From a virus (taxonomy: Duplodnaviria; Heunggongvirae; Uroviricota; Caudoviricetes): a stretch of DNA of 6,058 nucleotides. Shown here in pieces: positions 5,110-5,355 of this stretch. Location: IMG/VR virus record IMGVR_UViG_2675903609_000008; one strand, written 5' to 3'. The translations under genes were made by a program, and so were the position numbers. Within the stretch, counting starts at the first letter, position 1, and each line of letters begins with the position of its first letter. The notes under the pieces are model-generated. The model saw only the letters and a list, made by a program, of their open reading frames with translations. It searched no databases and was not told the origin of the DNA.

Positions 5110-5355
5110 GGCAAAAATGGGGCAAAACGCTGTATAAGGGGCAAAAAAGGGGCAAAAAAGAGTGGGTTATCGTAGCTTATTGTTGTCGCTGATAATGTTT
5201 AACATATTGAAAAATAAATAAAATACTTATGAGTCAGATAGTTGTGATTTTTGCCCTTACTTGTTCAGGTTGTATTGTTCTTTCTTTGTAATTTGTTGAT
5301 TTTCTTGCATTATTTCAGTTCTCTGGTACTAAATGGGGCAAATTGGGGGCAAACT
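5110..5355. repeat. Cluster of GGGGCAAA(A) motifs: two tandem 11-bp-phased pairs, a single copy and one inverted copy; candidate integrase arm-type or att-derived sites
   Basis: Direct copies at 5119-5127, 5138-5146 and 5149-5157 (a perfect tandem 11-mer AAGGGGCAAAA x2 at 5136-5157), 5335-5342 and 5345-5353. An inverted copy (TTTTTGCCC) lies at 5248-5256. The region is AT-rich and sits between the sitA promoter and the integrase stop codon. Confidence 0.55.

Follow-up and report, generated by a model that had tools for sequence, protein, structure and literature searches.

The stretch of DNA analysed here (the window, 6058 nt at its full length, from the IMG/VR virus record IMGVR_UViG_2675903609_000008) contains, between the transporter operon sitDCBA and the 3' end of the integrase gene intR, a complete and unsplit attP (phage attachment site) belonging to a Rac-type lambdoid prophage, and the short GGGGCA(A/T) repeats found on both of its arms are very probably the arm-type sites of the integrase. 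An original prediction, made from the letters of the window, had taken this region for an attP-derived one carrying arm-type integrase sites, an interpretation which is supported by a four-way alignment of attachment sites, by the 26-bp core common to them and by the presence of the Pfam domain PF12167 in full-length IntR.

The attachment site and its anatomy

In the four-way alignment attP was represented by the window and attB by the unoccupied locus of E. coli a7, where ttcA adjoins uspF, together with attL and attR sequences. The left part of attP was that of attR, its right part was that of attL, and the core, which lies inside the 5' end of ttcA, was common to attB as well; the crossover lies somewhere within these 26 bp. 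Positions 5261-6003 match the attL end of Rac prophages (ttcA, core, intR), and positions 4901-5303 match the attR end of a sit-carrying prophage inserted at the same site, with the order tfa, sitDCBA, P arm, core, uspF and ompN. The location of the att core within ttcA was reported by Liu et al. 2015 (PMC4632033), and the 26-bp att core annotated in KU052037 (Rac-SA53) is that of the window. In E. coli Jnd12 the unsplit form stands beside intR-xisR, and homology to the window begins at about 5107. Moreover, the homology of the P arm begins at 5107 whichever gene is its left neighbour, be it sit, ynaM, DUF1076 or DUF4376.

The phage also supplies a replacement for the 5' end of ttcA. In attL loci ttcA reads on from the phage-supplied start, and the N-terminus so encoded, MQENQQITKKEQYNLNK, agrees with the alteration of the TtcA N-terminus reported for Rac excision (PMC4632033). 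Between the core and the P' sites, in a place like that of H' in lambda, there is a consensus for the integration host factor (IHF), which is the sole exact match to WATCAANNNNTTR in the window; at this consensus an in vivo IHF peak has been described in the Rac attL of K-12 (PMC8407004). The P arm of the window yielded no clear IHF site. Counted from the centre of the core, the repeats are placed at -162, -151, -132 and -121 on the P arm and at +65 and +76 on the P' arm, the lambda sites being at -137 and -106 and at +59, +69 and +80, respectively. The motif is not present in the 26-bp core. Rfam gave no RNA family match, and a promoter and terminator scan gave nothing above shuffled sequences. 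The coordinates are collected in Table 1.

Table 1. Positions of the attachment site, its component sequences and the neighbouring features in the window
Feature	Position	Strand	Evidence or remark
Complete Rac-type attP	5107-5361		Four-way attP/attB/attL/attR alignment
P arm	5107-5260		Left limit is the start of homology among Rac-type attR/attP
P' arm	5287-5361		Right limit is the int stop
26-bp core TTGTTCAGGTTGTATTGTTCTTTCTT	5261-5286		Identical in attP, attB, attL and attR; inside ttcA 5' end
Phage-supplied replacement ttcA 5' end	5257-5310	-	Encodes MQENQQITKKEQYNLNK, then stop in the unsplit attP
IHF consensus AATCAACAAATTA	5289-5301	-	Lambda H'-like place, between core and P' sites
P-arm site ATGGCAAA, degenerate	5108-5115	+	11 bp ahead of the 5119 copy
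P-arm site GGGGCAAA	5119-5126	+	Exact copy
P-arm site GGGGCAAA, first of perfect 11-bp pair	5138-5145	+	Exact copy
P-arm site GGGGCAAA, second of perfect pair	5149-5156	+	Exact copy
P'-arm site GGGGCAAA	5335-5342	+	(T/A)TGCCCC kept after the int stop in Enterobacter, Erwinia, Hafnia, Citrobacter and Pantoea
P'-arm site GGGGCAAA	5346-5353	+	11 bp from the 5335 copy
Inverted near-copy AGGGCAAA	5250-5257	-	7/8 match; probably not a site
Tail-fibre-assembly-like gene	567-1250	+	Partly N-masked; open reading frame listing, similarity searches
sitDCBA	1451-4900	-	Open reading frame listing, similarity searches
Intergenic region	4901-5361		Contains attP
intR 3' part, about residue 199 to 411	5362-6003	-	About 213 codons, catalytic domain only; 96-97% identical to intR DNA
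IS1 element end, interrupting intR	6002-6058		100% identical to IS1 family elements

The repeat array

Within the 6058 nt of the window there are five exact copies of GGGGCAAA, none of them on the minus strand, while 200 dinucleotide shuffles of the window gave an expectation of 0.31 copies and none of them (0/200) reached five. Two pairs show a start-to-start spacing of 11 bp (5138/5149 and 5335/5346), the former being also recognized by Tandem Repeats Finder as a period-11 unit AAGGGGCAAAA at 5136-5160, and the last copy of the latter ends 9 nt short of the int stop codon (5362-5364). Since the degenerate site at 5108 stands 11 bp before the copy at 5119, the left cluster consists of two phased pairs (5108/5119 and 5138/5149). 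The GGCAAAAATGGG of this degenerate site is invariant in 10/10 aligned P arms and is still present in E. albertii and S. flexneri SFBU1023, whose P arms are of the short form. The distance between the left and right clusters is 197 bp (5138 to 5335), and the array region has 35% GC compared with 48.5% for the whole window.

The tandem pairs with 11-bp spacing, the AT-rich surroundings and the centre of about 200 bp flanked by the pairs had thus been correctly described in the original prediction, to which a third pair can now be added. As to the six copies of a G4CAAA core that it had counted, five are exact, whereas the sixth, an inverted copy included in the array, is a non-conserved 7/8 match. 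This near-copy was rejected as a site, being altered in the P arms of O55:H7, TUM1881 and E. albertii; it aligns to the ttcA codons just beyond the core, and probably represents residual ttcA homology lying outside the array.

The number of exact copies in the P arm differs between strains. There are three in the window and in K-12-like strains, one in SFBU1023 and E. albertii, following a 30-bp deletion (window 5127-5156), and four in FT130, which has one extra 11-bp unit. The P' pair of E. albertii (locus L107, about 2890-2910) reads TTTGCCCC-CA-TTTGCCCC, so that its spacing is 10 bp and not the usual 11. Also, a perfect 11-nt inverted repeat, GGTTATCGTAG / CTACGATAACC, is present at 5165-5175 and 5362-5372. 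Each of its arms has a GGGGCAAA pair 8 nt to its left, and the second arm overlaps the int stop codon. It is partially conserved in diverged P arms and was not found after int in other genera.

Conservation along the integrase lineage

Homologues from other genera were obtained through a genome scan with IntR. In Enterobacter, Erwinia, Hafnia and Citrobacter, with integrases 68-74% identical and inserted at the ttcA site, a TGCCCC-N5-TGCCCC pair lies 15-18 nt past the int stop, and the same pair holds the same position in Enterobacter and Pantoea with integrases 49-53% identical, where the neighbouring host gene is read as rstB-like; in both groups the flanks of the pair are not alignable. Further away, Klebsiella RCIP0098 and RothC and Salmonella FSL SP-016 (integrase 42-43% identical) have a pair at the 3' end of int, followed 207 bp on by another. 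In the 933W-type Stx1 phage AP005153 (44%) a second and a third pair occur 211 and 242 bp past the first, and the pairs stand on either side of the annotated attachment site; the record marks only a 'repeat_region' there. In Aeromonas pAEv1818 (35%) the pairs read CGCCCC-N5-TGCCCC and are 208 bp apart. A Pseudomonas phiCTX-like phage (32%) has the same layout round a tRNA-like core, with the word GTTCCCA and pairs 173 bp apart. The motif follows the integrase lineage, with GGGGCA pairs down to 35% overall identity and GTTCCCA at 32%.

Altogether, 30 phased pairs were counted in 27 loci of the family (287 kb), all on the int strand and in an interval running from -60 to +182 nt relative to the int stop, compared with none in 587 kb of unrelated loci. 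The occurrence of the motif beside homologous integrases in other genomes, its occurrence at the opposite prophage end and its density in unrelated DNA had been put forward as checks of the original prediction: the motif is present in other genera and at the opposite end, and about 0.85 Mb of DNA from elsewhere contains no phased pair. In the Klebsiella, Salmonella, Yersinia and Stx1 phages the int-proximal pair is situated inside a C-terminal extension of the int open reading frame (ORF), 33-60 nt before the annotated stop, and in the Aeromonas phage within the int ORF, 39 nt before its annotated stop; in these distant relatives the integrase coding sequence spans its own presumed binding sites.

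The integrase and the proposed mechanism

Residues 5-69 of full-length IntR match the Pfam domain Arm-DNA-bind_2 (PF12167) at 92 bits, where the cutoff is 22. This domain is followed by Phage_integrase, which is the only domain found by Pfam in the intR fragment of the window. Given that PF12167 has been assigned to the arm-binding integrases of the IntBPP-1 type (Smyshlyaev et al. 2021, PMC8138268), IntR is placed in this subgroup of arm-binding tyrosine recombinases. The PDB holds no structure of the IntR arm-binding domain. In relatives of 35-53% overall identity the arm-binding domain is 48-65% identical to that of IntR and the core-binding domain 24-40%, and the divergence of the latter goes in step with changed attB sites. 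This is the pattern that would be expected if the arm code had been kept and the chromosomal target changed.

By likeness to lambda, IntR would act as a heterobivalent tyrosine integrase whose N-terminal domain binds the arm sites. Its molecules would occupy the phased pairs at 5108/5119 and 5138/5149 on the P arm and at 5335/5346 on the P' arm, and IHF would bend the DNA at its consensus. The C-terminal domains of the arm-bound IntR would thereby be brought to the core, which would exchange strands with its identical 26-bp counterpart inside the ttcA 5' end. After integration, the P' pair would be found in attL, between intR and the phage-supplied ttcA start, and the P-arm pairs in attR, at the far end of the prophage.

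Several points weigh against the assignment of the repeats to IntR. The GGGGCA(A/T) repeats are predicted IntR sites, and since an XisR-like excisionase is co-conserved with the integrases, conservation alone cannot tell Int from Xis sites, the separation of the two depending on the two-arm distribution of the motif and on one published negative electrophoretic mobility shift assay (EMSA). With one, three or four exact copies in the P arm, not every copy can be essential. Two viral-contig homologues (L225 and L252) show no motif after int, the Yersinia phage YP3 shows the int-proximal pair only, and for the relatives of 49-74% identity the evidence on pairs covers the int-proximal (P') end only. 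Moreover, the footprint within E. coli, taken from its two most diverged P arms, is modest: mismatches affect 2/32 motif positions compared with 28/103 others in the first variant (p = 0.008) and 3/32 compared with 20/104 in the second (p = 0.15). At the level of sequence, all the features compared are those that a lambda-type attP would be expected to display.

Comparison with known systems

The attP of lambda has the arm-type sites P1, P2 and P'1-P'3 and the IHF sites H1, H2 and H'. Like it, the attP of the window comprises about 250 bp directly after the int 3' end, both of its arms carry repeats of a short motif that has no relation to the core, and the core is separated from the P' sites by an IHF site (H' in lambda). 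In both cases arm binding is assigned to an N-terminal domain of its own in the integrase. The differences concern the word itself (CAGTCACTAT in lambda and GGGGCA(A/T) in the window), the arrangement of the sites, P2 being inverted in lambda whereas the copies of the window have a single orientation and form 11-bp pairs, and the 26-bp core in the 5' end of ttcA, a gene whose start is replaced by the phage. In addition, the arm-binding domain of IntR (PF12167) belongs to another Pfam family than that of lambda Int, PF09003. An integrase specificity other than that of lambda, as anticipated in the original prediction, is in keeping with the different word and the different family. The lambda sites have been footprinted, whereas those of the window are predicted from sequence.

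The described Rac att sites (PMC4632033, KU052037, PMC8407004) have the same intR, xisR, 26-bp core in ttcA and attL IHF site. Nevertheless, these sources contain neither arm-type sites nor GGGGCAAA repeats, KU052037 annotating the core only and the word 'arm' being absent from Liu et al. 2015 (PMC4632033), and the site of the window is an unsplit attP, not an attL or attR. More generally, the literature searched provided no account of the arm sites of IntR or of any PF12167 integrase (933W, Stx and Gifsy included), although older subscription papers may contain one.

Phage 21 (OL657228) is also lambdoid and carries sitABC(D) as cargo, sitC, sitB and sitA being seen in its region 1-2685. Three tandem sites are annotated directly after its int ('P1P2P3; consensus YYTTCCCCAAAA'), and on the int strand their word resembles that of the window in being T-rich, then CCCC, then A-rich. 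However, the word is TTCCCCAAAA instead of TTTGCCCC, the integrase is lambda-like and attB is icd. The IntBPP-1 integrases of an Stx2a phage, Gifsy-2 and BPP-1 share the PF12167 arm-binding family with IntR, and in PF12167 phages (933W-type Stx1, Gifsy-2-like FSL SP-016, Klebsiella, Aeromonas) phased TGCCCC pairs likewise flank the core. These phages differ in their attB sites and core-binding domains, and their int-proximal pair lies within the int reading frame.

Alternative explanations

The sites of recombination directionality factors are usually confined to one arm, while the motif is present on both arms of the window, which makes it highly improbable that the repeats serve the excisionase XisR (YdaQ), itself a factor of this type, instead of the integrase. 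The proposal is not without grounds, since short direct repeats in attP are the typical targets of excisionases, Gifsy-1 Xis binding to three such repeats of imperfect sequence (PMC2603039). XisR-like genes are also found together with these integrases, and XisR shifts a 294-bp attR fragment holding the P-arm repeats (PMC4632033). However, once the published primers of Liu et al. 2015 were mapped onto a K-12-like attR (locus L166, 263-677), the control fragment AttM, to which XisR does not bind, proved to contain all three P-arm copies of GGGGCAAA and the inverted near-copy, ending 1 nt short of the core. In the published EMSA the AttR fragment, which runs through the core, was shifted and AttM, with the whole P arm, was unshifted (PMC4632033); therefore, the excisionase site seems to be at or beyond the core, which would be unusual for a directionality factor. 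Replication-origin iterons, or a slippage repeat devoid of function, would also present a tandem unit with an 11-bp period in AT-rich DNA, and the variation in copy number between strains fits slippage. Nevertheless, there is no replication initiator gene in the window or in related loci, a result which tells against the iteron array also mentioned in the original prediction, and both GGGGCA and the 11-bp phasing keep a constant position with respect to int in different genera, with integrases down to 35% identity and flanks fully diverged. Neutral slippage would not yield such an array, and the likelihood left to these explanations is minimal.

The original prediction had also raised the possibility of an array regulating sitA, and the repeats do share an intergenic region with the start of sitA, whose start codon they precede by 210-455 bp. 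That they are an upstream regulatory element of sitABCD, either operators of a metal regulator or activator sites, is nonetheless hardly credible, since the array keeps identical boundaries beside unrelated cargo (ynaM, DUF1076, DUF4376) in Rac-type prophages, the sit operon of phage 21 and its upstream region adjoin a different attP, and the P' pair is found directly after int also where the attL end of the prophage shows no sit genes. Other lambdoid phages, whose sit content was not checked, match only 4901-5091 (92-96%) and not the array. The known regulation is accounted for by putative operators nearer sitA, namely an MntR-type palindrome at 4933-4954 and a Fur-box-like sequence at 4977-4995. 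The former is a perfect 9+9 palindrome, AAACATAGC-N4-GCTATGTTT, resembling an MntR operator, and the latter, on the minus strand, agrees at 16/19 positions with the Fur box consensus. A different case is that of the P' pair (5335-5353), which might double as an operator in the leader or promoter of ttcA, with IntR occupancy modulating ttcA in lysogens. Such a role would be added to that of arm-type sites and would not replace it. Arm-type sites are also discussed in a study of integrase gene regulation in KplE1 (PMC2951348). On the strand that carries both intR and ttcA, the pair precedes by 25-45 nt the start codon that the phage supplies for ttcA (5310), and in KplE1 the arm-type sites reportedly overlap the intS promoter. 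Nevertheless, a simple promoter scan gave nothing on the minus strand in 5311-5361, and where relatives use other attB sites their pair is inside the int ORF, so that a role as ttcA operator cannot be general and is on the whole unlikely.

Genomic context and the unsplit site as a relic

The gene order of the window is the circular order of the phage, that is, tail genes, cargo, attP and int. The site is unsplit because two prophage copies meet in it, one with its right end (tail fibre assembly gene, sitABCD) and the other with its left end, as the remnant of a tandem lysogen. The locus of E. coli H22 (L178, 9001-9317) presents sitDCBA, an unsplit attP, an int fragment of 77 codons, a frameshifted metal ABC transporter permease gene and uspF; this second permease gene is probably a sit remnant, and the locus as a whole is what is left of a tandem double lysogen. 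Unsplit Rac-type attP sites are rare but recurrent, being found in 38/5426 complete E. coli genomes, and one further example (L331) came from scans of IMG/VR with IntR and two of its diverged homologues. Apart from it, these scans gave no new P arms, almost all contigs stopping at the int stop or being attL forms.

The IS1 insertion at about codon 199 of intR has removed the arm-binding and core-binding domains. With its own intR lacking the arm-binding domain, the attP of the window could function only with IntR provided in trans, and is otherwise a fossil. In E. coli H22, where 77 int codons are left, the P' sites are mutated. The locus of Shigella flexneri SFBU1023 is 99.9% identical to the window except for one 30-bp difference, and there the InsA and InsB ORFs continue the IS1 element. 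Beyond it, reading by eye showed IS3-family and other transposase-like ORFs together with a recE-like ORF. At the left end of the window, an ORF at 67-678 reads by eye like a transposase helix-turn-helix and resembles a fusion of two insertion sequence fragments, and a run of 112 N (843-954) masks part of the tail-fibre-assembly-like gene. As for the sit iron/manganese transporter, it is phage cargo beside a fossil attP, which is ordinary biology for Shigella and E. coli.

Implications

Arm-type sites determine how the recombination complex of an integrase is assembled and in which direction it works. For Rac and IntR the core, the excisionase and the IHF site had been reported so far, and the repeats are likely to be the missing piece. 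In the genomes of enterobacteria, the GGGGCA pairs could be of help in marking the ends of prophages and those attP sites that are intact, and the motif could inform the design of integration vectors based on IntR.

A broader proposition is that the phased GGGGCA-N5-GGGGCA represents the common arm-site code of the whole PF12167 (IntBPP-1) clade, for and against which we consider the chances to be evenly balanced. If it were true, one shared GGGGCA code would span Rac, 933W-type Stx, Gifsy-2-like and Aeromonas phages despite their different targets, and would offer a sequence signature for finding attP and both prophage ends across a large clade, whose members would switch targets by swapping the core-binding module and retaining one arm code. 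Furthermore, the int-proximal pair of Rac lies in the phage-supplied ttcA leader, where its occupancy by the integrase might affect a tRNA-modification gene of the host.

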